Origin: Clostridia bacterium
GTDB lineage: Bacteria; Bacillota; Clostridia; Oscillospirales; Acutalibacteraceae
Assembly: GCA_017398425.1 (NCBI GenBank)
Contig: JAFQFZ010000039.1
Location: 5,006-69,005, forward strand
Direction: 5' to 3'
DNA length: 64,000 bases
The notes beneath the pieces are model-generated. The model was not told where the DNA came from. It made no database searches and saw only the letters and a program-made list of their open reading frames with translations. The stretch's first letter is position 1. Every line of letters begins with the position of its first letter. Made by a program: the position numbers and the translations under genes. This document shows, piece after piece, positions 3,459 to 64,000 of the stretch.

Positions 3459-5549
3459 ATGAAGCAGATCATCAAAAGCAGCATCGGCATCCTGTGTGCG
3501 CTGGCGTTATTGTTGACGGCGCTTCCCGCCATCGTCTTGACGACGGAGCCGCTCACGGCGGATGCGGCGGTGACGCACCTTCCCGTGCAACGCCAGTACG
3601 ATGCAAAATGGAAGAACTATTACATCGGCGGTCGTTCCATGTATCAGACCGCTTGCGGTATCTTCTCCATCGTCAACTCGGTCGGTTGGTTGACCGGCAA
3701 GTCGATGGACGTTATGGAAGTGGGTCGTTGGGCGTACAGCATCAAGGCGTTCAACTACTCTTCCGGCGGCACGACACGTTCGTTGCTCTATCCGAAGCTC
3801 CAAGCGAAGTACGGCGCGCAGTACGGCTTCACCGTGGACTGCAACGGCACGCAAGGCTACTGGGCCGGTGCGTCCAGCTCCCGCCTGAAGAATCACCTTG
3901 AGAACGGCGGCGTGGCGATCGCGCACGTGAAGGGTCACTTCATCGCGGTCGTTGATTACGATCGTTCCAGCAACAAGTTCCGCATCTTTGACAGTGCTCC
4001 CAGCTCGGCGCGCGGCAGTAACGTCTACGGCGAGTATGGTCTCGGTGACGTGTGGCTTTCGCAGAGCTTCCTGCAGACGACGGCCAAGATGACCATCGAC
4101 TGGTACTGCCTGCTCTCGAGCACTACGCCCGTGACTCCCGCGGACACCGCGGAAAAGATCGGCACCTGGCAGCTCAACAGCAAAGCGCCCGCCAGCGACC
4201 CCCTCAACGTCCGTGAGGGCCCCGGCACCTCCTACACCGATATCGGTGACTTGGTCCAGGGCGACATCGTCTACACCAGCGAGCTTTCGGGCAGCTGGGG
4301 CAAGATCAAGAAGATGGACAGCGGTCTCGAAGGCTGGGCGAGTGTTTCGAGCTACGCGGATTACATCGGCGTGGACGCGCTCGGCGGCACCCCGACGCCC
4401 GCGTGGGGCGATGTGAGCACCTATCTGGACGAAAACGGTCGCCGCACCATCATCAACAACTCCGCCACCGACACGGTGGGTTACGATTTGCTGTTGCCCA
4501 TCGATATCGGTGTGGACACCACGCCCTACATGAGCCTGCAGATCACCCCGAACTACGGCAACGGCTACTATTTCGGTATTTCGCAAAACGGCAGCAGTCA
4601 CTTCATGTTGCGCGACTGCAGCTCGAGCAGTCAGCTGGTCGTGGCGGAAACCGCGCCTTTCATGACCACGTGGGAGAAGTTGGAGATCGACCTGCGTGAC
4701 TGGTGGAAACCCGAAGGCGGCGAGAAAATCAACATGGTGCGTATCTATGTGGCGCCCTCCTCTTCGATCACGGTTGATTATTTCTACTTTGCCGCGGCGA
4801 GCGGTAAGGTCACCGATACGACCTACAACCTCATTCGTCAAGCGACTCCCATCATTAACGAGAACCTGATGGATCCCAACTCGATCGCAGTCGAGAGCTA
4901 TGATCGCAAAGGTTCCTATTCCTACGACAACGGTCGTTTGACGGTCACCTCCAACAGCCCTGAAGGCTACTCGGTCGTGTTCAACCTCAACAAGGACTTC
5001 AAACCCGCCGAGACGAAGAACTGGCTCTTTGACCTGACTTCGACCACCGGCTTTGACGTGCAGCTCGTGGCGACGACCTCGGTCGGTGATTGGAACTACG
5101 GCTTGGTTGCCGACTTCTGGCCGGGTCTGTGCGATACCCTCGAAGACGGCTATCTCCCCGCCGAGACCTACAAAGGCGAGTGCGACGTGTACAGCTGCTA
5201 CACCTGGAACAACAACCTGCCCGCCAACGGTGTCAGCACCATCAAGCAAGTGCGTGTGGTTCTGGCAGGCGAAGGCACCCTGACGCTGAACTCTTTGCAG
5301 GTTTCCAATACGACCGACATCGTGCGTTATGCGGACGGTCTGCAGAAGGAAGAGACCACCACCGGCGGTCTCAAGGGCGACGTGGACGGCAACGGCTCGG
5401 TTTCGACCGCGGATGCGCGCGAACTGCTGATGCTGCTCCTCACCGGTACCGGTATGGACGACAGCATGAAGGCGATCGCGGACTTCAACGGCGACGGTGA
5501 GGTTTCGACCTCCGATGCCCGTGAACTGCTCCTTTCGGTGCTTCTCTAA
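3459..5549 (+). CDS. Secreted C39-like (papain-fold) cysteine peptidase domain + SH3b + beta-sandwich region + C-terminal dockerin
   Basis: RBS AGGAGG and a signal peptide. Candidate Cys/His pair in YQTACGIFSI and GHFIAVVDYD. SH3-like LNVREGPGTSYTDIGDLVQGDIVY. Dockerin duplicate GDVDGNGSVSTADARELL / DFNGDGEVSTSDARELL. Confidence 0.75.
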   Translation: MKQIIKSSIGILCALALLLTALPAIVLTTEPLTADAAVTHLPVQRQYDAKWKNYYIGGRSMYQTACGIFSIVNSVGWLTGKSMDVMEVGRWAYSIKAFNYSSGGTTRSLLYPKLQAKYGAQYGFTVDCNGTQGYWAGASSSRLKNHLENGGVAIAHVKGHFIAVVDYDRSSNKFRIFDSAPSSARGSNVYGEYGLGDVWLSQSFLQTTAKMTIDWYCLLSSTTPVTPADTAEKIGTWQLNSKAPASDPLNVREGPGTSYTDIGDLVQGDIVYTSELSGSWGKIKKMDSGLEGWASVSSYADYIGVDALGGTPTPAWGDVSTYLDENGRRTIINNSATDTVGYDLLLPIDIGVDTTPYMSLQITPNYGNGYYFGISQNGSSHFMLRDCSSSSQLVVAETAPFMTTWEKLEIDLRDWWKPEGGEKINMVRIYVAPSSSITVDYFYFAAASGKVTDTTYNLIRQATPIINENLMDPNSIAVESYDRKGSYSYDNGRLTVTSNSPEGYSVVFNLNKDFKPAETKNWLFDLTSTTGFDVQLVATTSVGDWNYGLVADFWPGLCDTLEDGYLPAETYKGECDVYSCYTWNNNLPANGVSTIKQVRVVLAGEGTLTLNSLQVSNTTDIVRYADGLQKEETTTGGLKGDVDGNGSVSTADARELLMLLLTGTGMDDSMKAIADFNGDGEVSTSDARELLLSVLL

Positions 5550-12029: not shown

Positions 12030-13433
12030 TCAGTCGTCCCTCTCGGAGGAGAACGACAAAATGTCTCCGTTGGCGGCGTCGATGAGATATTCGTATTCGA
12101 CGCCTCGATATTGAAACTCAAGTGCGTAGCGGATGTGGCCGCCTTGGTTTCTTGTGCGGATGTCCACGCGAATCGACAAATCGGGCACGTTGGCGTGCCG
12201 GAGTGCGATCTCCCGCGCTTGCTCGGCGGTAATGGGCATCGCTTTCGTTGCGGTCGTCGCAACGACCGTTGTCGTCGTGAGCGTTGTGGATTTCATGGTG
12301 GTTGAAGTCGCCGGCGTTGTCGAAGTCACCGTTGTGACCGGTGCGATCGTCGTTGCGGGAACCGATGCTTTGGTGGGGATAGTCACTTTGGTGGGTGCCG
12401 TGGTACGGATCTCCGTAGGACGGACGGTGCTTTCGGGACGGTCGTCCGCTTCTTTCTCCGCTTTCAGGATCGTGCCGTCCACGGCGTGAACGAGATATTC
12501 GTATTCCGTGGATTCAAACGTGAATTCCACTTCATAACACAGGACTCCGTTTTCACAGTCCCACTCCGCTTCCAGCTCGGTCACCGCGTCGGCCGTCAGC
12601 GTGGCATGCGCCAGCGCCGCCGCGGTCGCACGTTCGCGCCCGATGTACGCCCGTTCGCTTGCGTGACCGCGTCCGTGGACGGCAGGGAGCGCGATCTTTT
12701 CTGTCAACAAATGCAGGTCGTTGATCGGAAGTGTCGCCAAGCTCTCGAAGGTCTTAGTTTGGAGCGGATCGGCTTCGAGAATGCGACGCACCAACGCCGC
12801 TTTGCCAAGGCTGATGCCATGGGCATCGGCAAGCGCTTTCAGCTCGTCGTCCTTGACGACACGCTGGCTGAGTACCGCGCCCTCGACCTGTTTGTCGGCC
12901 ATGGTGCCGATCACTTCGTCGGTCAATTGTTGTTGCAACGTTTGCGCGTAGGTGTCATCGTCGTTATCAATGGTGATGAGAACGGAGTTTGCGGTATCGC
13001 TCAGATACCCGCCCTCCACCATAGAATCCACCAGCGCATCCACGGTATCGTTCAGCGAACGATCTTTCCAGTCGGTTTTTGCGAGGATCGCCTCGCCGTC
13101 GGCGTTCAGGGCGCGGACTTCAAGCACGGTTTCTTCTTTGTCCATAGAAATGGATACGCTGGGGTTGACGTCGAGCGAGACGACCGTCTCTGTCTTTGAT
13201 GCGAGGGGTAAGGGAGTATCCCTTCTCGAGAAATGCGAGATCATCGCACCGCCGATCACGGTCAACACCAGGGCGGCGGCGACGCTCATGGCGATATAGC
13301 GCCGAAAATGGGTTATTTTCGGGGGAGACGGAGGCGATTCCTCGCACGCGTCCAAAACTTCCTCGGATAAAGGCGGAACGGATAGCGCACCAAACCCATG
13401 TTGAACGTATTGTTCGATCTGTCGTTTTTTCAT
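12030..13433 (-). CDS. Anti-sigma-like single-pass membrane protein with two PepSY-like domains and a Thr-rich linker
   Basis: Start set at the ATG at 13433, forming an ATGA overlap with the sigma gene stop. TM segment YIAMSVAAALVLTVIGGAMISHF. PepSY-like ends (GVLCYEVEFTFESTEYEYLVHAVDGTIL; IRYALEFQYRGVEYEYLIDAANGDIL). No zf-HC2 motif is present. Confidence 0.65.
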   Translation of the reverse strand: MKKRQIEQYVQHGFGALSVPPLSEEVLDACEESPPSPPKITHFRRYIAMSVAAALVLTVIGGAMISHFSRRDTPLPLASKTETVVSLDVNPSVSISMDKEETVLEVRALNADGEAILAKTDWKDRSLNDTVDALVDSMVEGGYLSDTANSVLITIDNDDDTYAQTLQQQLTDEVIGTMADKQVEGAVLSQRVVKDDELKALADAHGISLGKAALVRRILEADPLQTKTFESLATLPINDLHLLTEKIALPAVHGRGHASERAYIGRERATAAALAHATLTADAVTELEAEWDCENGVLCYEVEFTFESTEYEYLVHAVDGTILKAEKEADDRPESTVRPTEIRTTAPTKVTIPTKASVPATTIAPVTTVTSTTPATSTTMKSTTLTTTTVVATTATKAMPITAEQAREIALRHANVPDLSIRVDIRTRNQGGHIRYALEFQYRGVEYEYLIDAANGDILSFSSERDD

Positions 13434-14002
13434 GCAGTATCCCCTTTTTCTAAAATCACACGTAGCTTCTTCAAAGCGCGGCTGTATTTGGACAGCACGG
13501 TCGGTAACGCGAGATGTAAGATTTGGGCAATTTCGCGATGGCGAAAACCACTCACCGCATGCAACACCACGATCTGTCGTTCTTCGTCGGACAGACGGTT
13601 CATGCAAGCGGACAAGGCCAATCGATCTTCGGTCGTGCACGGTATGCGGTCGTCGATCCATCCTTGCTCATCTTCTTCGGAGAGCGGGGTGGTTTTTTGC
13701 CGTGTGCGCAGCACCTGTACACAACGGTTATGTACAATGGTATAGATCCATGCTTTCGCTTTCCCTTGCGGGCGATAGGTTTTAGTGCCATGCACGATGG
13801 AAAGAAAGCTGTCCTGCAACACGTCCTGCGCGTCGTGCTCGTTTTGCACGACGGACAAGGCATAACCGTAGACCTCCTTGGAGATCGCTTCGTACAGACG
13901 CTGTAAGGCGTCACGGTCTCCCTGTCGTACGCGGTCAAGGAGATCGTCCAAATCCGGTGAGGCTGTGCTGTTCGCTACCGACGTCAAGTAGACTGTCAGC
14001 AC
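13430..14002 (-). CDS. ECF (sigma-70 family) RNA polymerase sigma factor
   Basis: Regions 2 and 4 are recognisable (DALQRLYEAISKEVYGYALSVV; LSDEERQIVVLHAVSGFRHREIAQILHLALPTVLSKYSRALKKL). Start set to the GTG at 14002, 9 nt after AGGAG. The track's TTG at 14011 directly abuts the RBS. Confidence 0.85.
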   Translation of the reverse strand: MLTVYLTSVANSTASPDLDDLLDRVRQGDRDALQRLYEAISKEVYGYALSVVQNEHDAQDVLQDSFLSIVHGTKTYRPQGKAKAWIYTIVHNRCVQVLRTRQKTTPLSEEDEQGWIDDRIPCTTEDRLALSACMNRLSDEERQIVVLHAVSGFRHREIAQILHLALPTVLSKYSRALKKLRVILEKGDTA

Positions 14003-15407: not shown

Positions 15408-16379
15408 TCAGTCGACGGAAAGATGGACAAAGTTTCCGCTGAAAGACCACACGAAGTCCTCCTCCGGATTGCTTGAGGAAGAGATAAAGTTCAAATCCGA
15501 AATGAGGATTTCGGAATAGGAGGCAGGTGCCAGTGCTTTGAACGTGAGTCGGAAGAGCGGTTCGCCGTTTGTGTGGTTGCCGACCGAGCGGTGCGTGTCA
15601 AATTCGATGCGCACCGTGCCGTCTTCCGATTTGGAGGACGAAAACGCCGTGCCGTCCGGGAAGGCGGTGGCGGCGATGCCGTTTACATAGGGGTTTTGGA
15701 CACCCTCGCCGTTGACTGCGACCAATTCCATCACGTTCGCGTCGTAGGCGACGGTGAGCGAGCCTTTCACAAGGCAGGTCGTTCCGTTTGAGGAAAACGG
15801 GACGGTAAACAGCTCACCGACCGTTCCCACGGTTTCTACGGGAGAAAAGCGGACGAAGTGTACGATCGCTCCGAGCGGCGGCAACATACCACCATCGTGT
15901 TTTGTGGTTGTGGTGGTTGAAGGAACGGTGGTCGGGGAGGTGCTTCCCGTTGTAGAGACCGCGGTCGGCACGGTGGTCGGCGGCACGGTGGTCGGCGGCA
16001 CGGTGGTCCCGACGGTCGTTTGCACTGTAGTGTCGACTGTTGTGACGACGGTGCGGTCGGTGTCCTGCGTTACTTCGGTAGAGCCGGTGGTGGAGACGGC
16101 GGAGACGTCGGTCGATTCGCTCGAAGGCGGAGATGTTGTGTCATGCGGTGAAACGACGGTCGTCGTAACGGACGTAGGAATGGTCGTGGTGGTATCGGTG
16201 CCGAGCGGCACGGGTGTGCGATTGGCAGTGAAAAAGGTGGTTACCACCAACGCCATGGCACCGCAGAGCACGGCACCGCCGCAGATGGCGCGTGTGCGAC
16301 GACGCACCTTGGCAATGTGAATGATGCGTTCTTCACCGCGGCGGTGAATTTCTTGCTTCAACTCTTGCAAATCTCTCAA
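15408..16379 (-). CDS. Single-pass membrane protein: short basic cytoplasmic tail, TM, Thr/Pro-rich linker, C-terminal cohesin-like domain (putative anti-sigma-like partner)
   Basis: TTG start 7 nt after GGAGG, overlapping the sigma stop (TTGA). TM segment AICGGAVLCGAMALVVTTFF. The C-terminal ~150 aa follow the cohesin pattern (GELFTVPFSSNG..LVKGSLTVAYDANVMELVAV...DGTVRIEFD...GEPLFRLTFKAL). Confidence 0.55.
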   Translation of the reverse strand: MRDLQELKQEIHRRGEERIIHIAKVRRRTRAICGGAVLCGAMALVVTTFFTANRTPVPLGTDTTTTIPTSVTTTVVSPHDTTSPPSSESTDVSAVSTTGSTEVTQDTDRTVVTTVDTTVQTTVGTTVPPTTVPPTTVPTAVSTTGSTSPTTVPSTTTTTKHDGGMLPPLGAIVHFVRFSPVETVGTVGELFTVPFSSNGTTCLVKGSLTVAYDANVMELVAVNGEGVQNPYVNGIAATAFPDGTAFSSSKSEDGTVRIEFDTHRSVGNHTNGEPLFRLTFKALAPASYSEILISDLNFISSSSNPEEDFVWSFSGNFVHLSVD

Positions 16380-16921
16380 AACGGCACCTCCTCTCTCGAT
16401 AACAGTTCTTTGAGTTCTTTGCGTGCGCGATACAGCAGGTTGTCTATCTGTTTGGCGCTTTTCTTCATGACGCGCCCCGCGTCCTCGTAGGACAGATCCT
16501 CGAAGTACACTAAGTGTACCGCACTTTGCATGTCGGACGACAATTTTTCGATCGCGGCGGCCAGCGCCAGTGACTGATCGGATTTTTCGATGGGGTTTGC
16601 CTCTTGTGCTTCGTCGATCAACTCGCTGACGTCGGCAAAGCTGTGCGTGTTGCGCCGCTTATGATGGCGCAGATACGTCAGCGCACGGCTGCGACCGACC
16701 ATGAAAACGTACGTTTTCAATGACACCTTGAAGTTGTAGCGATACTTGTAGGCAAACAATTCAACAAAGGTGTCCACGGCAATGTCCTCAGCCGCTTGAT
16801 AATCCTGCACATAGCGATTCAGATAGTTCACAAGCTTGTGGAACATATCGTCCACGATGGCGTCGAATGCGTCTTTATCGCCGTCTATGTAGCGTTGATA
16901 GTGTTCGGCGTTGGTATCCAT
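16376..16921 (-). CDS. ECF (sigma-70 family) RNA polymerase sigma factor
   Basis: RBS GGAAAGGAG. Region 2 (DAFDAIVDDMFHKLVNYLNRYV..AEDIAVDTFVELF) and region 4 (YFEDLSYEDAGRVMKKSAKQIDNLLYRARKELK). Confidence 0.85.
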   Translation of the reverse strand: MDTNAEHYQRYIDGDKDAFDAIVDDMFHKLVNYLNRYVQDYQAAEDIAVDTFVELFAYKYRYNFKVSLKTYVFMVGRSRALTYLRHHKRRNTHSFADVSELIDEAQEANPIEKSDQSLALAAAIEKLSSDMQSAVHLVYFEDLSYEDAGRVMKKSAKQIDNLLYRARKELKELLSREEVPF

Positions 16922-17039
16922 ACGGCTCTCCTTTCCTGCGGAAAACGTCTCACTCTTTATACGACTGCAGAGAGGGGGATTTCCTTATAAAATATCTTTT
17001 TTTTTCAAAATTCGACCTTCGTACTCATGAAAAAGCGGC

Positions 17040-55164: not shown

Positions 55165-58100
55165 GTGTTGCAACTGATTTTGGGACGTTCGGGCTTCGGT
55201 AAAACGCACGAAGCGACCGAGCGCATCGTCGCGGCGGCGCACGCCCAAACGGGCGGTGCGTCGGTGCTCATTGTGCCCGAGCAAGCCTCGTTTGAAACGG
55301 AACGTGCGTTGGTGCGTCGCCTCGGAGATGCGGATGTCGCCAAGGTGCAGGTTCTCAGCTTCACCCGCATGATCGAAACGCTGATGAAGGAGCACGCGGG
55401 TCGCCCGCTCTCAAACGGTGCCAAGATCATGCTGATGAGCCGTGCCGTGGCGGAGTGTGCCGATCGTCTGACGCTGTATGCCGACGCGAAGCGCGCCGAC
55501 ACCGTGTCCGCCCTTCTTGACGCGGCGACCGATTGCCATCAGGCGGCGGTCACCCCGTCGGCACTTAGCGAGGCAGCGGACAAGCTCCCCGAAGGGGCGT
55601 TGCGTCAAAAGACAGCAGAGATCTCCCTGCTTTTGGAAACCTATCATACGCTCAAGGCAGATTGCGGCTACGATCCGCAGGAGAGCCTCAGTGTGTTTGC
55701 CGCATTTTTGGAGGAGACGCGTCCGTTGCAAGGGGCTACCGTGGTGGTGGACGGCTTTCGCAGTTTCACCGCCCCCGAATTGCAGGTGCTGTCCGCCTTG
55801 ATGGCGCAGGCAGCTTCGGTGACGGTGACACTCTGCACCGATCGTGTGCACGACGATACCGACGGTCTTGATCGCTTTTCGGTGGTGATGCAAACAGCAC
55901 GTCGTTTGATGCGCGCCGCCGAGGAGCGCGGCTGTGCGGTGGAAAAACCGCAGTTGCTGATGACTCCGCACCGCTTCCGAAACGATACGCTCGAGGCGCT
56001 CGAAGCCACCGTCTTCACCCCTGAACAATGGGAGGTCGAGCCGTCTGAGGCGGTGCGGTTAACCGTGTGTTCGGATATCTATGAAGAGTGCAGTTTTGTC
56101 GCACAGACGATTCGTCGTTTGATGCGCACCGAGGGTCGCCGCGCCCGTGAATTTGCGGTGGTGGCGCGTGATCTGACGTCCTATGTCGGCGTGCTGGATG
56201 CGGCGTTCGATGCCGCCGAGATTCCCTACTACCTCGACCGTCGCGCTCCCATTGCGGGCGAGGGATTGATCGCGGCGGTGACGGCGGCGGTCAAGATCGC
56301 CGTCGGCGACTGGCGCACCGAGTCGCTTCTGCGCTTGATGAAGACGGGTTTGCTCGGCTTTTCCGCGTCGTCCGCGGCAACACTCGAAAATTACGTATAC
56401 GTTTGGAACATCACCGGTGCGCAGTTTAAAAACGAATGGCAGGCGCATCCGCGCGGCTTTGTGCCGACGCTCACGGCGCGTGATGAGGGACAGCTTGAAC
56501 GTCTCAACCGCTTGCGCCGTCGGTTGGTGCGTCCGCTTGTGACGCTGGCAAAATCGCTGTCGTCGCCTTTGAACGGCGAGGAGTTTGCCACGGCGGTCTA
56601 TAAGTATGTCCGTGCGGCACGCATCGATCGCATGATTGCCGGGCGGATCCGTCGTTTGCGCAAAACCGACCCGTCGCTCGCCGAACACACCGAACAGGTG
56701 TGGAACGCGTTTGTTTCGATTTTGGATGACATGGCAACGGTGCTCGGAGAGGATCGTCTCGACGCCGCGCACCTGCTTGAATTGTTCCGCTCGGCAACGG
56801 TCAAGACCGACGTCGGCACCATTCCGCAATTGCTCGATGCGGTACAGATCGGCGCCGCGGATCGGATGCGGTTCGCCGCACCGTCGATCGTGTTTGTGTT
56901 GGGTGCCAACGAAGGCGTGTTCCCGTCGTTGCCGTCGGGCGGCGGACTGTTCAGCGACCGCGACCGCCGTATGCTCGGTGAGGTCGGCGTGCAATTTGAG
57001 GACGACCGTGAAGAGCACACCGCGACCGAACGCTTTTTGGCGTACACGGCGCTCTCGGCGGCGAGTGAGCAGGTCTACGTTTCGACGCTTCTGCAAACGC
57101 CGGACGGCGAGCGTGGCGAGCGCTCGTCCATCTGGCAAACCGTTACAGCGCATCTGCCGTTTGTCACGGAACGAGCCGCTGTTGCGGATGACGGCTCCGA
57201 TATCGAAACCGTCGGAGCGGCGTTTGAGCGGATGGCGGACGGCTTTTGCGCGGGCACGCCGTTGTCGCGCGCGTTGTACCGCTTGCTGTGGGAGGATGAA
57301 TCGCTTCGCGGACGGCTGTCCGCCATGACGCGCATGCGCGAGGAAACCCCCGTGACCTTCGCGTCTGAAGCGGAGGCGGCTCGTTTCTTCGGCGACCGCA
57401 TGGTGCTGTCGCCGTCGCGTGTGGAGCGGTATCATCAATGCCGCTTTGCCTATTTCTGTCAGTACGGTTTGCGCGCGTTGCCGCGTCGCACCGCTGAACT
57501 CGGTGCGCTGGAATTCGGCACGCTGACGCACTATGTGATGGAGCATACGTTGCCGCAGTATATTGCCGAAGGCATCGACACCATCCGTAAGGCGCGGTGC
57601 TTTGAGGATGCCAAGGCGACGTCGATGCGCTTTGTGGACGACGAGATGGGCGGACTTGAAGACAAACCGCCGCGCTTTACCTATTTGCTGATACGCTTGC
57701 AGGGTGTGTGCGGCAACTTCCTGTGGCAAGCGGTGCGCGAACTGTCGCAAAGCCGCTTTGTCCCGACGGATTATGAGCTGTCGATCGGCTACGGCGACGA
57801 TAATGTGGAGCCGATGACCTTCACCTTGCCCGACGGAGCGCAGGTCGCGATGATCGGGCAGATCGACCGCGTCGATGTCTACGATCAAGGGACGACGCGC
57901 TATGTCCGCGTCATCGATTACAAGACGGGCAGTAAGCAGTTCCGTCTGGAGGACGTGGTCGAGGGTATCAACCTGCAAATGCTCATCTATATGATGACAC
58001 TCTGGAAGAACGGCGGCAAACGGTACGGCGAGGTGCTCCCCGCAGGACTGCTGTATATGCCGTCAAAGACCCCGATGGTCAAGGCAGAGGAGGCACCTAC

Positions 58101-58500
58101 CGAAGCGGCACGCGAACAACAACAAATGAAGCAAATGCGCATGAACGGTCTGCTTCTCGACGATGAGCAGGTGCTTCGCGCGATGGAGCCGGGCGTGCAA
58201 GGGGTGTTCATCCCCGCCAAGCTGAAAAAGGACGGCTCGCTCTCGAAAACCAGCTCGGTGGCGACGCTGGCGCAGTTCGGTGCGCTTGGTCGCCGCGCAC
58301 AAAAATTGCTCACGGATATGGCAAAGACTCTGCGTGCGGGTGATGTGGATACCTGTCCGTTCGTGACCTCGTCGAACGATCCGTGCCGCTATTGTGATTA
58401 TCGCGCGGTGTGCGGTCACGAATCGGACGATCGTGTGCGCGAGCCGTCGTGCAGCAGTACGGAAGAGGTACTTGCATCCTTAACGGAAACGGAGGAGTAA
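55165..58500 (+). CDS. addB: Helicase-exonuclease AddAB, subunit AddB (RexB)
   Basis: GTG start after AAGGGGGAG. N-terminal LILGRSGFGKTH. C-terminal PD-(D/E)XK nuclease with Fe-S cysteines (..CRFAYFC.. and CPFVTSSNDPCRYCDYRAVC). Confidence 0.88.
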   Translation: MLQLILGRSGFGKTHEATERIVAAAHAQTGGASVLIVPEQASFETERALVRRLGDADVAKVQVLSFTRMIETLMKEHAGRPLSNGAKIMLMSRAVAECADRLTLYADAKRADTVSALLDAATDCHQAAVTPSALSEAADKLPEGALRQKTAEISLLLETYHTLKADCGYDPQESLSVFAAFLEETRPLQGATVVVDGFRSFTAPELQVLSALMAQAASVTVTLCTDRVHDDTDGLDRFSVVMQTARRLMRAAEERGCAVEKPQLLMTPHRFRNDTLEALEATVFTPEQWEVEPSEAVRLTVCSDIYEECSFVAQTIRRLMRTEGRRAREFAVVARDLTSYVGVLDAAFDAAEIPYYLDRRAPIAGEGLIAAVTAAVKIAVGDWRTESLLRLMKTGLLGFSASSAATLENYVYVWNITGAQFKNEWQAHPRGFVPTLTARDEGQLERLNRLRRRLVRPLVTLAKSLSSPLNGEEFATAVYKYVRAARIDRMIAGRIRRLRKTDPSLAEHTEQVWNAFVSILDDMATVLGEDRLDAAHLLELFRSATVKTDVGTIPQLLDAVQIGAADRMRFAAPSIVFVLGANEGVFPSLPSGGGLFSDRDRRMLGEVGVQFEDDREEHTATERFLAYTALSAASEQVYVSTLLQTPDGERGERSSIWQTVTAHLPFVTERAAVADDGSDIETVGAAFERMADGFCAGTPLSRALYRLLWEDESLRGRLSAMTRMREETPVTFASEAEAARFFGDRMVLSPSRVERYHQCRFAYFCQYGLRALPRRTAELGALEFGTLTHYVMEHTLPQYIAEGIDTIRKARCFEDAKATSMRFVDDEMGGLEDKPPRFTYLLIRLQGVCGNFLWQAVRELSQSRFVPTDYELSIGYGDDNVEPMTFTLPDGAQVAMIGQIDRVDVYDQGTTRYVRVIDYKTGSKQFRLEDVVEGINLQMLIYMMTLWKNGGKRYGEVLPAGLLYMPSKTPMVKAEEAPTEAAREQQQMKQMRMNGLLLDDEQVLRAMEPGVQGVFIPAKLKKDGSLSKTSSVATLAQFGALGRRAQKLLTDMAKTLRAGDVDTCPFVTSSNDPCRYCDYRAVCGHESDDRVREPSCSSTEEVLASLTETEE

Positions 58501-58505
58501 ACGAT

Positions 58506-59744
58506 ATGGAGATCGGAATTTTGATCGCCGCTTCGGTGGCGGCGGTCGCGGCGGTCGCGGCGCTTTGTGTCACACTCGCGCGTGGGCGAAACGACCGCTC
58601 CCTGCGCGATGTCAAGGAGGATATCGTCGCCGCCAACGATCGCGCTCTCTCGGCGGCGACGACCGCCAACACGCGGCAAACCGCCTTGATGGATCAGCAC
58701 ATGAAAGAACGTCAAGAAGCGTTGCAACAAGCGGTCACCACCTCGATGACGCAGATGGAACAGCGCCTGCGTACCATGGAAGCGATGAACGAGCAAAAGC
58801 TCGATGCGATCCGCACGTCGATGGAGCAACGCCTGCAATATCTGCAAGAAGACAACAACCGCCGTTTGGATGAAATGCGCAAAACGGTGGATGAGAAACT
58901 GCAAAAGACGCTTGAAGACACGATGACGCAGTCTTTCCGCTTGGTCAACGAACGCCTCGAGCAAGTGTACAAAGGACTCGGCGAGATGCAAACCCTTGCG
59001 GGCGGTGTCGGGGATCTCAAAAAGGTGCTGTCGAACGTGAAAACACGCGGCATCCTCGGCGAGATCCAGCTCGGTGCGATTTTGGAAGAAATTTTGGCTC
59101 CCGAGCAGTATGAAGTCAATGTCGCCACCGTGCCGTCGAGCACGGCGGTGGTAGAATTTGCCGTGAAGCTTCCCGGCACCGACGGGGAGACGGTCTATCT
59201 CCCGATCGACTCGAAGTTCCCCGGCGACGCCTATGCGGCGTTGCAGGATGCCTACGACAGCGGCAATCCCGAGGCGGTCAACCAAGCGGCGGCGGTGCTG
59301 ACCACCCGCCTTAAGAGCTTTGCCAAGGACATCCGCGACAAGTACATCGAGCCGCCCTTCACGACGGATTTCGCCATCATGTTTTTGCCGTTTGAGGGAC
59401 TGTACGCCGAGGCGGTCAACCGCGGACTGGTGGAGGTGCTTCAGCGCGATTATAAAGTCAACCTCGCAGGCCCCAGCACGATGGCGGCGCTTCTCAACAG
59501 CCTGCAGATGGGCTTCCGCACGCTCGCCATTCAAAAGCAAAGCGGTGAAGTGTGGAAACTGCTCGGTGCGGTGCGCACGGAATTTGACAAATTCAGCGAT
59601 ATTTTGACGATGACGCAAACGCGACTCGATCAGGCGAACAAAGAACTCGACAAGCTGGTCGGTGTGCGCACCCGCGCCATTCAGCGCCGTCTGCGTGATG
59701 TGGAGCGGGTGGAGGAATCCACCGCCGCGTCACTCTTGGAATAA
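58506..59744 (+). CDS. rmuC: DNA recombination protein RmuC
   Basis: ATG after GGAGGAG. N-terminal TM, long coiled coil, then the RmuC nuclease-like block VEFAVKLPG...YLPIDSKFP. Confidence 0.88.
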   Translation: MEIGILIAASVAAVAAVAALCVTLARGRNDRSLRDVKEDIVAANDRALSAATTANTRQTALMDQHMKERQEALQQAVTTSMTQMEQRLRTMEAMNEQKLDAIRTSMEQRLQYLQEDNNRRLDEMRKTVDEKLQKTLEDTMTQSFRLVNERLEQVYKGLGEMQTLAGGVGDLKKVLSNVKTRGILGEIQLGAILEEILAPEQYEVNVATVPSSTAVVEFAVKLPGTDGETVYLPIDSKFPGDAYAALQDAYDSGNPEAVNQAAAVLTTRLKSFAKDIRDKYIEPPFTTDFAIMFLPFEGLYAEAVNRGLVEVLQRDYKVNLAGPSTMAALLNSLQMGFRTLAIQKQSGEVWKLLGAVRTEFDKFSDILTMTQTRLDQANKELDKLVGVRTRAIQRRLRDVERVEESTAASLLE

Positions 59745-59756
59745 GGAGGAGAATCT

Positions 59757-60206
59757 ATGTTGACGATACGCGCTGCCGTCCCCGCCGATCGCGAAACGTA
59801 TTTCGCGATGGCAAAGGCATTTTATCAAACCGACGCCGTGATGCATCCCATTCCCGATGTCCATTTCGAAACCACATGGGAAGAAGTGATGCGCTCCTCG
59901 CTCTATGCCGCGATCGATATCCTCGAAGCGGACGGCGAGACGGTCGGCTATGCGCTCTACGCCAAAACCTATTCGCAAGAGGCCGGCGGTATGGTGTTGT
60001 GGGTGGAGGAATTGTTCCTTTGCGGGGAACACCGCGGAAAAGGCTACGGTCGAGCGTTTTTTGAACAGCTTTTGAAGACACTTCCGCCCGAGGTGCGCCG
60101 TGTGCGTCTCGAAGCGGAACGCGACAACGCGCGAGCGGTTCGCTTGTACGAATCGCTCGGCTTTGAGTGGATGGAATATGAATCCATGATGCTTGAACGC
60201 GCATGA
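59757..60206 (+). CDS. GNAT-family N-acetyltransferase
   Basis: RBS AAGGAGGAG. Acetyl-CoA motif CGEHRGKGYGRAFFEQL. Confidence 0.85.
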   Translation: MLTIRAAVPADRETYFAMAKAFYQTDAVMHPIPDVHFETTWEEVMRSSLYAAIDILEADGETVGYALYAKTYSQEAGGMVLWVEELFLCGEHRGKGYGRAFFEQLLKTLPPEVRRVRLEAERDNARAVRLYESLGFEWMEYESMMLERA

Positions 60207-62490: not shown

Positions 62491-62494
62491 AGGA

Positions 62495-62535
62495 ACTCCC
62501 CCGAAGCATTTTTACATGCTTCGGGGGAGTTTTTT
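62495..62535. terminator. Terminator between convergent genes
   Basis: aactcccccgaagcat-ttttac-atgcttcgggggagtt followed by ttttt. Confidence 0.85.
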
Positions 62536-62541
62536 GTACGA

Positions 62542-63432
62542 TCATATAAGGTCGATGGTGGTTGCCAACATGCTTCTCGCATCGCCGGTTTCGATTTTGC
62601 CGTTACCGTCAAAATCCGCGGTGCTCAGCCAATCGTCGCTGAGCGGCATCACCCCTGATAAGCAATACGACAGCACAAGTCGTGCGTCACCGGTGGTCAG
62701 CTTGCCGTCTTGGTTCACGTCTCCCTTGGGAAAGCAACCTACCTCTACTCCTTCGATGGTCAAATACGCATACGCGCCGAACGCGCAATCGTTCTCGCGG
62801 ATATAGAGTTTTGCCTCTCCTTCGGCAAGCGCCGTCACATACACTGTGTCACTGCCGTCTTCATAGGAGATTGCAATGTTCGTCGACGTGGTGTCAACCG
62901 AGCCGCCGCGCGCAATCTTGGTGACGGGATGGTAGAACTGAATCGCGCGGGTTTCACCGACCTGCATAGGAGAGCGGTCGTAGGACAGCTGTGTGATATA
63001 ATCGGGGACAACCGTGGTCGTGGTGGTTTCCGCTTCGATGGTCAAATACGCATACGCGCCGAATGCGCAATCGTTCTCGTGGATATAGAGTTTTGCCTCT
63101 CCTTCGGCAAGCGCGGTCACATACACCGTGTCACTGCCGTCTTCATAGGAGATCGCAATGTTCGTCGATGTGGTGTCCACCGAGCCGCCGCGCGCAACCT
63201 TGGTGACGGGATGGTAGAACTGAATCGCGCGGGTTTCACCGACCACCATAGGAGAGCGATCGTAGGAGAGCTGTGTGGCGTAGCAAGCAACGGCGGTGGT
63301 CGTGGTGGTGGTTTCGTTGTCGGCGGCGACCGCGACGGAGGTGTTCGCGGTAATCGTCGATGCGCATACACAGGTCGTGAGCAGAACGGGCGTCACAAGA
63401 AGGCTGAGGTGTTTCAAAAAATGTCGTTTCAT
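62542..63432 (-). CDS. Secreted protein with two near-identical Ig-like (Big_2-like) domains and a C-terminal dockerin
   Basis: ATG at 63432, 8 nt after AGGAG (the track's GTG at 63441 abuts the RBS). Signal peptide present. Duplicated TQLSYDRSPM.VGETRAIQFYHPVTK.ARGGSVDTTSTNIAISYEDGSDTVYVTALAEGEAKLYI. Dockerin GDVNQDGKLTTGDARLVL / DFDGNGKIETGDARSML. Confidence 0.75.
   Translation of the reverse strand: MKRHFLKHLSLLVTPVLLTTCVCASTITANTSVAVAADNETTTTTTAVACYATQLSYDRSPMVVGETRAIQFYHPVTKVARGGSVDTTSTNIAISYEDGSDTVYVTALAEGEAKLYIHENDCAFGAYAYLTIEAETTTTTVVPDYITQLSYDRSPMQVGETRAIQFYHPVTKIARGGSVDTTSTNIAISYEDGSDTVYVTALAEGEAKLYIRENDCAFGAYAYLTIEGVEVGCFPKGDVNQDGKLTTGDARLVLSYCLSGVMPLSDDWLSTADFDGNGKIETGDARSMLATTIDLI
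62755..63290. repeat. Tandem direct duplication (~235-bp homologous cores about 270 bp apart, roughly 13 mismatches)
   Basis: gatggtcaaatacgcatacgcgccgaa...ggtttcaccgacc occurs at about 62755-62990 and again at about 63037-63260, differing at scattered positions. Confidence 0.9.
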
Positions 63433-63453
63433 CAAGATCACTCCTTTTTGAGA

Positions 63454-64000
63454 TTACGGTGCGGTGGTGGTTGTGGTGGTCGTCGTGGTGGTTGTCGTGG
63501 TGGTCGTCGTAGTGGGGCGTGTATGAAACGTGCGCGTTGTCTGTGATGTGGGAAAGAGACTCGGTGCACTGTTTGTCGGTTCCGACGGCGTCGTGGACGG
63601 GGTGGTGCTGATGACAGCGGTCGTCGGTACGGTCGGCGACGTGGTCGGCATGGTCGTTACGCGCGCGGTCGTGCGTACAGTCGTGGACGGTACAGTAGGG
63701 CGTGCAGTGGATTCGATTGTCGTCGGTGTCGTCGGCGCGTCGGTGGGACGGACCGCGGCGGTGGTGTGTGCGACCGAGGGGGAAGAGGATGGAGTCGTGC
63801 CGACTGTCGTTTCGGTTACTTCGGTCGTTTGCGACTGCGATGAGGTGGAGGCGGTGGGGACTGCCAAGAGCGTCTGCGGCTCGGGGGACGGCCACGTTGC
63901 CAAAAATGTCCACACAATCAAGGAGAGCGAGGAAGTCAGCAAAAGCGCGTGCCGCACACGGCGTGCCGCGCGACGGCGAGCGACGAGACGCTCTTCGCCT
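63454..64000 (-). CDS. Single-pass membrane protein with a Thr/Pro-rich extracellular tail, N-terminus beyond the window; paralog of the N-terminal part of the 15408-16379 protein
   Basis: The frame stays open to base 64000. The upstream codons read GEERLVARRRAARRVRHALLLTSSLSLIVWTFL. Compare GEERIIHIAKVRRRTRAICGGAVLCGAMALVV in the 15408 gene. The protein ends in a 17-residue poly-Thr run. Confidence 0.6.
   Translation of the reverse strand, partial: GEERLVARRRAARRVRHALLLTSSLSLIVWTFLATWPSPEPQTLLAVPTASTSSQSQTTEVTETTVGTTPSSSPSVAHTTAAVRPTDAPTTPTTIESTARPTVPSTTVRTTARVTTMPTTSPTVPTTAVISTTPSTTPSEPTNSAPSLFPTSQTTRTFHTRPTTTTTTTTTTTTTTTTTAP

Follow-up and report, generated by a model that had tools for sequence, protein, structure and literature searches.

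At the right edge of the window, i.e. the whole 64,000-nt stretch analysed here (Clostridia bacterium of the Acutalibacteraceae, GenBank assembly GCA_017398425.1, contig JAFQFZ010000039.1), lies a group of genes, termed locus B, which is likely to be a self-activating extracytoplasmic function (ECF) sigma factor operon controlling a single cellulosome accessory protein equipped with a dockerin. This reading builds on direct observations of gene order, coupling, a unique and conserved promoter, a terminator, domain content and a family-wide association with dockerins. The window corresponds to C32:5006-69005 of a 1.68-Mb genome in 70 contigs (79% complete). The contig extends 4.9 kb beyond the right edge of the window, so that the gene cut by this edge and its upstream neighbour could be read as well. 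All locus B genes are located on the minus strand, in the order promoter, sigma B, asB (its anti-sigma-like partner), cargo and terminator:

C32:69036-69587 (beyond base 64000 of the window), minus strand: sigma B, ECF sigma gene, 184 aa
63454..64000 (partial in the window; full start at window-equivalent 64041, C32:69046), minus strand: asB, anti-sigma-like partner, 195 aa
63433..63453, minus strand: asB-cargo spacer of 21 nt, holding the ribosome-binding site AAAGGAG
62542..63432, minus strand: cargo gene, 296 aa, immunoglobulin (Ig)-like domains and dockerin
62751..63277, minus strand: tandem duplication within the cargo gene (period 282 nt, 1.9 copies, 95% matches)
62494..62531, minus strand: intrinsic-terminator-like hairpin directly after the cargo stop (16-bp stem, 9 G-C pairs)

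An earlier sequence-only reading, confined to the window, had predicted an ECF sigma gene just beyond base 64000 and overlapping the start of the edge gene; such a gene was indeed found, with an overlap of 14 nt between the stop of sigma B and the start of asB. The same reading had described a separate gene 21 nt downstream, encoding a signal peptide, two Ig-like domains and a dockerin, which was borne out by its ribosome-binding site, by structure modelling and by a match to PF00404 (see below). Locus B was read as one operon because of the 14-nt overlap, the 21-nt gap between the asB stop codon TAA and the cargo ATG at 63432, the absence of an internal terminator and the presence of a strong terminator after the cargo gene. 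A consensus scan listed no terminator-like or promoter-like site in the asB-cargo spacer, and the hairpin at 62494..62531 likely marks the end of the operon. On the other flank, the terminator of the upstream gene sits directly before the sigma B promoter.

The cargo ATG is in the same reading frame as asB (TAA and seven codons between them). We considered whether asB and the cargo might be one gene split by a stop codon, or joined by stop-codon read-through, and rejected both for locus B, as the cargo has its own ribosome-binding site and signal peptide and its homologues are free-standing secreted proteins.

Sigma B contains regions 2 and 4 only, the layout of ECF (group IV) sigma-70 factors, and aligned to PF04542 (46.1 bits) and TIGR02937 (86.1 bits, cut-off 42.9); none of the narrower NCBIfam subfamily models reached its cut-off. 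The in-window part of asB (open reading frame (ORF) 63454..63999) encodes GEERLVARRRAARRV, a transmembrane (TM) segment and a Thr/Pro-rich tail closing with 17 Thr residues, AP and TAA, while the full protein begins MKSYEQFTESVLKKGEER. Its overall layout is MKSYEQFTESVLKKGEERLVARRRAARRVRH, a hydrophobic segment of ~20 residues and a 145-residue tail. The charged 30-aa head includes the basic run RRRAARRVRH, the single TM segment spans approximately residues 31-50, and the stalk that follows is composed almost wholly of Thr, Ser, Pro, Ala and Val (ending in T17-AP-TAA); a topology with the N-terminus inside was read from these three elements. Located directly downstream of sigma B with overlapping ends, asB is coupled to it in the manner of a single-pass ECF anti-sigma factor. 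The highest fraction of the residues FWYILMC in any 60-aa window of its ectodomain was 0.08, compared with a median of 0.38 in 140 relatives; therefore, no globular outer domain is present, in agreement with the sequence-only reading, according to which the edge gene stops after a run of 17 Thr without such a domain.

Approximately 33 nt upstream of the sigma B start we located the promoter TGAGAG-N16-CGACTAAT, which is conserved in relatives and which, to judge from the sequences, sigma B itself would use. Of the related loci, 76 had enough sequence upstream of sigma for comparison, and 45 of these showed an ungapped motif there, GTGAGAG-N16-CGTCTAAT; alignment across these 45 loci gave GTGAGAG(A/T)TTT-N-CGTCTAATAAGTG. 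A weight matrix scored at least 18 bits at the promoter position in 113 of 146 loci, a set that included some of the training sequences as well as 80 metagenome loci that were not used for training. The genome's own copy, TGAGAGATTTTTCGCATCGTAACGACTAAT (C32:69615-69657), scored 37.2 bits, the next-best site in the genome 15.9 bits, and shuffled genomes reached ~14 bits; moreover, the core regular expression of the motif occurred only once in the genome. Within the 79% of the genome that is assembled, sigma B therefore has no evident target other than its own three-gene operon.

Under the proposed mechanism, the 30-residue cytoplasmic head of asB would tether sigma B to the membrane, and removal of asB would set the sigma factor free. 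Such removal would probably proceed by regulated proteolysis, by analogy with RsiW, RsiV and RsgI, and would end with the M50 site-2 protease, a gene for which is present in the genome. Free sigma B would then read the sole motif-fitting promoter of the assembled genome, in front of its own operon, and autoactivation would both amplify the switch and yield the cargo, which, once secreted, would plug into a cohesin by means of its dockerin. The Thr-rich stalk of asB is probably O-glycosylated, as judged from cellulosomal linkers, and would span the cell wall. With the stalk alone outside the membrane and no sensor domain there, the input could come from the stalk, through its being attacked or through its state, or else from a partner acting in trans.

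Directly upstream of the sigma B promoter, a further minus-strand gene (C32:69712-70860, window-equivalent 64707-65855) encodes a secreted Thr-rich protein of 383 aa with a C-terminal dockerin (PF00404, 25.3 bits) and has its own hairpin terminator.

Four sigma/partner pairs in the genome

Inspection of the region downstream of all 17 sigma-70 region-2 matches in the genome revealed four sigma/partner pairs, in all of which the sigma stop overlaps the partner start (14 nt in B, 4 nt in A, C and D):

Pair A, window 15408-16921, minus strand: partner ends in a cohesin
asA, 15408..16379, minus strand: related head, TM segment, Thr-rich stalk and C-terminal cohesin
sigma A, 16376..16921, minus strand: stop overlaps the asA start by 4 nt
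Pair B, locus B at the right edge of the window, minus strand: stalk-only partner, cargo with two Ig-like domains and a dockerin
Pair C, C52:29443-30683: stalk-only Thr-rich tail, two dockerin genes downstream
Pair D, C29:3482-4644: small non-Thr ectodomain, lipoprotein-like gene downstream, no dockerin

Sigma A, C and D were 45-49% identical to one another, and sigma B was 31-37% identical to them. Between sigma A and sigma B in particular, identity was 31-32% (related at E ~1e-27), and their promoter motifs differ. An A-type motif distinct from that of sigma B, TAAGGA-N15-17-(C/T)(G/T)TATAA, has exactly three copies in the genome, which precede the remaining sigma genes by 28-35 nt:

Window 16957-16987: before sigma A (TAAGGA-N17-CGTATAA)
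C52:30718-30747: before sigma C
C29:4673-4701: before sigma D

Pairwise comparison of residues 1-30 of the asB and asA heads gave a Smith-Waterman score of 51 against 22.3 +/- 4.2 for shuffled sequences, and none of 2000 shuffles reached 51. Head profiles were then built from other genomes only (the B-type profile from 99 partners of orthologous sigmas) and searched against 16,910 six-frame ORFs of this genome, with the following E values:

asA: A-type profile 8e-7, B-type profile 1.0
asB: A-type profile 0.06, B-type profile 2e-9
asC: A-type profile 1e-3, B-type profile 1e-3
asD: A-type profile 6e-7, B-type profile 1e-3

With the B-type profile asB ranked best among all 16,910 ORFs, and with the A-type profile asA-asD took the first four places among the genome's ORFs. 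The B-type profile alone does not retrieve asA; the relatedness of the two is therefore shown by the pairwise shuffles and by profile-profile comparison, in which hhalign aligned the A-type and B-type heads with a probability of 97.9% (E 5e-13). As the two head profiles align, the pairs form one superfamily with two subfamilies; by their sigmas, A, C and D make up one and B the other.

These results uphold the proposal of the sequence-only reading that the N-terminus of asB is related to that of the gene at 15408, and its estimate of at least two family members grows to four pairs in the genome-wide check. Its description of asB as a second copy of the 15408 gene family has to be qualified: the heads and sigmas are related, but they belong to different subfamilies, as seen in the low identity of their sigmas and in their different promoters. 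Likewise, the suggestion that each copy adjoins cohesin or dockerin parts stands for three of the four pairs and fails for pair D, which has none.

The cohesin of asA passed the PF00963 cut-off of 24.1 bits when its C-terminal 164 aa were searched in isolation (29.2 bits), and scored 28.4 bits in the six-frame search. Although this isolated segment passes, a Pfam scan of full-length asA returned no cohesin at E <= 0.01, the match seemingly being masked by the Thr-rich stalk. A sequence search of the asA cohesin against the PDB gave no match. In pair C, an acidic, Trp-rich motif, GDSWLGGDDGDGNWWEDW, breaks the Thr-rich tail of asC (C52:29443-30138), whose last residues are GGVWWN; two dockerin-bearing proteins are encoded downstream, the first with its dockerin at the N-terminus.

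The wider family, the cargo and the missing sensor

Sigma B orthologues with 50-63% identity were identified in strains of Ruminococcus flavefaciens, in other Ruminococcus species and in many metagenome-assembled genomes of Oscillospirales. In the related loci examined, the partner start overlaps or abuts the sigma stop, and the partner consensus consists of MKSYEEMAESVFERRDEYLAEKKRKRK and a TM segment, after which comes an ectodomain of 130 to 640 aa that is hypervariable. Head, TM segment and stalk are thus common to the partners, and it is their outer domains that vary. The R. flavefaciens partners are named 'hypothetical protein' in RefSeq, and a Pfam search with 74 partner ectodomains returned almost no match and neither cohesin nor dockerin.

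A total of 160 related loci were collected, of which 140 had a complete partner gene and 98 a same-strand ORF starting within 350 nt of it. Such downstream ORFs carried a dockerin in 35 of 98 cases (14 clusters at 30% identity). In 157 related loci, dockerin density was 0.117 per kb downstream of the partner versus 0.037 per kb upstream of sigma, with the excess concentrated in the first downstream gene; as the related loci are not independent, these counts are descriptive. The dockerin gene of locus B might, of course, lie beside an ordinary ECF pair by chance, given how many dockerin genes this genome packs into its 1.68 Mb (~73 ORFs, or 0.043 per kb, with six in the window). For this reason neighbour statistics within this genome alone are weak, all the more so with only four pairs, two of which have dockerin genes downstream. 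Nevertheless, the 21-nt gap on the same strand with no internal promoter- or terminator-like site, the single sigma-B-type promoter in the genome and a dockerin density that across the family is three times as high downstream as upstream, mostly in the first downstream gene, make a chance neighbourhood highly improbable.

In nine loci (L210, L217, L222, L225, L227, L230, L233, L234 and L236), the partner's C-terminal domain (~180 aa) resembled a repeated domain of the dockerin cargo from the same locus, with 28-53% identity and E values of 1e-20 to 1e-60. Three metagenome loci (L204, L207 and L208; sigma at ~3501-4049) encode a stalk-only partner that continues in frame and without a stop into a signal-peptide-like segment and a dockerin protein. 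The fused ORF of ~545 aa has the layout of asB plus cargo, where one TAA and seven codons intervene.

Promoter placement varied in some relatives. In locus L056 the dockerin gene is immediately preceded by a promoter copy of its own, the second in that locus. Twelve loci (L047, L064, L068, L070, L076, L078, L157, L181, L183, L186, L191 and L201) have a second sigma-B-type promoter 150-450 nt upstream of sigma and in the opposite direction, preceding a secreted protein of ~545-590 aa in nine of the 12; one of the 12 proteins has a dockerin. The regulon in these 12 loci has two arms.

The cargo of locus B is composed of a signal peptide, a Thr linker, an Ig-like domain, another Thr linker, a second Ig-like domain and a dockerin. 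Its AlphaFold2 model had a mean predicted local distance difference test (pLDDT) score of 79, with both beta-sandwich domains above 90, and Foldseek returned as best matches the tandem Ig-like domains of SbsB/SbsC S-layer proteins, invasin, intimin and LigA (E 3e-8 to 1e-6); no Pfam sequence family matched these domains. The dockerin aligned to PF00404 with 27.6 bits (cut-off 22.9) and is of type I, with calcium-binding loops DVNQDGKLTTGD and DFDGNGKIETGD visible in the sequence and C-terminal helices in the model. The second Ig-like domain arose by a recent tandem duplication of 282 nt, the repeats being 95% identical. Consistent with a variable number of domains, several of the 25 cargo homologues found were single-domain proteins of 195-203 aa and others had three domains. 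The cargo dockerin belongs to the type common in this genome, sharing 45-53% identity with dockerins of large enzyme-sized proteins, and a dedicated dockerin subtype for cargos of such cassettes was looked for and not seen.

Four of the cargo homologues (P0017 and P0020-P0022, 44-45% identity) are membrane proteins without a dockerin, each built of a different head, a single TM segment, a Thr-rich linker and the cargo-type Ig-like domain in two or three copies. Two of them follow, with a 4-nt overlap, a different ECF sigma (21-29% identical to sigma A-D), and a third follows a gene cut by the contig end. Thus, the cargo Ig-like domain serves elsewhere as the ectodomain of an ECF partner. This fusion-versus-neighbour (Rosetta-stone) pattern lends itself to another explanation, in which the cargo of locus B would be a detachable sensor head docking on a surface cohesin, possibly that of asA, and in which cohesin-dockerin pairing would feed the state of cellulosome assembly into ECF signalling. 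Both membrane homologues with a readable upstream gene are coupled to an ECF sigma, the genome does possess a cohesin-tipped partner in asA, and sensor and cargo domains are paralogous in the nine related loci described above. However, the cargo dockerin is of the common type and could be received by at least 10 cohesins, and the promoters of sigma A and sigma B differ, so that any cross-talk would be indirect; we regard a detachable head as quite improbable. The broader notion that cohesin-dockerin pairing acts as wiring for transcription control, asB and asA being two states of a modular ECF receptor with its sensing head in trans, is similarly a long shot. If it were true, the in-trans head would be the cargo of locus B and the cell would read which proteins dock on its surface.

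A third explanation treats asB as the remnant of a partner that lost its sensor domain by deletion, leaving the operon either locked off or, with a stub ectodomain open to site-2 cleavage, constitutively on, and the position of the cargo without signalling meaning. The extreme position of asB in the hydrophobic-residue comparison with its 140 relatives is in line with such decay, as are the location of the cassette in a variable region absent from same-genus genomes and the fact that the cargo family is normally encoded elsewhere. On the other hand, the head, TM segment, coupling overlap, promoter and terminator are all intact, the paralogue asC likewise has only a Thr-rich tail with dockerin genes downstream, and stalk-only partners in other lineages (L107/L212 and L204/L207/L208) suggest a recurring functional type. 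We therefore consider decay unlikely, albeit less so than a chance neighbourhood.

Several observations nonetheless weigh against reading locus B as a working, self-activating operon for its cargo. Stalk-only partners are rare (~3 of 140 relatives, namely L107/L212 and partly L117), and asB, being sensor-less, may be a decayed copy. It matched no Pfam or NCBIfam family and no recognisable anti-sigma domain (zf-HC2/RsiW-like, RskA and similar); since its head lacks a known anti-sigma domain, we infer binding of sigma B from position and conservation only. Other targets of the sigma B promoter may lie in the unassembled part of the 79% complete genome. No sigma gene was found nearby in any of the four contexts of secreted, dockerin-tagged cargo homologues. 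In searches for closer relatives, genome and metagenome scans ended at ~60-63% sigma identity, and the same-genus genomes G045 and G216 contained no A- or B-type sigma at the thresholds used. With a best sigma identity of 63% and two same-genus genomes without a match, conservation of the exact locus B arrangement cannot be shown.

A large-database search with the asB head gave no match. At the DNA level, G045 and G216 matched the window only in the rmuC/GNAT flank (about 58100-60200), which in G216 is followed by an alcohol dehydrogenase gene instead. Conserved linkage of this particular cargo lineage with sigma was rejected on the strength of the four secreted-homologue contexts. As cargo homologues do not adjoin the sigma B family while 35 of 98 downstream genes carry a dockerin, the dockerin link holds for the sigma family as a whole and not for this cargo lineage.

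Comparison with known systems

SigW/RsiW and SigV/RsiV are ECF pairs of Firmicutes controlled by regulated intramembrane proteolysis. Locus B would share with them the co-transcription of an ECF sigma and a single-pass, N-in anti-sigma and positive autoregulation, as established for these pairs, with a CGTC-type -10 element, and an M50 site-2 protease is present here as well. However, no zf-HC2 or RsiV-type domain was detected in asB, the -35 element is TGAGAG rather than TGAAAC, and as output a single dockerin protein takes the place of an envelope-stress regulon. A lead, and only a lead, to the short head of asB is offered by class II anti-sigma factors of the CnrH/CnrY type, in which a very short cytoplasmic sigma-binding segment replaces the four-helix domain. 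CnrY belongs to another phylum, has no known sequence relation to asB and acts with a separate periplasmic sensor, CnrX.

In polysaccharide utilization loci of Bacteroides, ECF sigma/anti-sigma pairs are embedded in, and control, glycan-degrading surface machinery (PMC3463488). The placement of ECF pairs within loci for such machinery is common to both; their signalling runs via a TonB-dependent transducer across the outer membrane, whereas the present system belongs to a Gram-positive cell with a presumably wall-spanning Thr-rich stalk and cohesin/dockerin parts.

How ruminococci control the make-up of their cellulosomes is not known, and RsgI/SigI explains only Acetivibrio-type bacteria (PMC11557425). 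In the literature on ECF and anti-sigma factors with Ruminococcus cellulosomes, we found no description of such pairs. The family presented here is widespread in R. flavefaciens and its relatives, with an unannotated short-headed partner, a defined promoter motif and an output that is very often a dockerin protein. It supplies specific regulators and promoters of accessory cellulosome parts that can be put to the test in cultured rumen strains, and may show how ruminococci, and the gut or rumen fibre-degrading bacterium hosting locus B, control these parts. At the same time, the stalk-only and cohesin-tipped variants in this genome pose the puzzle of how a switch of this type could sense at all.

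A functional parallel is provided by the SigI/RsgI biomass-sensing pairs of Acetivibrio (Clostridium) thermocellus and Pseudobacteroides cellulosolvens (PMC4711584, PMC6056542, PMC10328401); according to a 2024 survey, RsgI receptors are used only by Acetivibrio-type cellulosome producers (PMC11557425). Sigma B is a plain two-domain ECF type and not a sigma-I factor, the asB head has only ~30 aa and lacks a sensor domain outside the membrane, and neither asB nor asA contained RsgI_N or RsgI_M in a Pfam scan. In the same window, a neighbouring gene (12030-13661) does match RsgI_M (E 1e-28). The likeness lies in a cellulosome producer having several paralogous pairs of a sigma and a membrane-bound anti-sigma, in apparently self-activating promoters with cellulosomal (dockerin) genes as targets, and in sensors that resemble domains of the regulated proteins, a feature seen here in the nine related loci. 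Locus B would work like SigI/RsgI of A. thermocellus but is not a member of that system.

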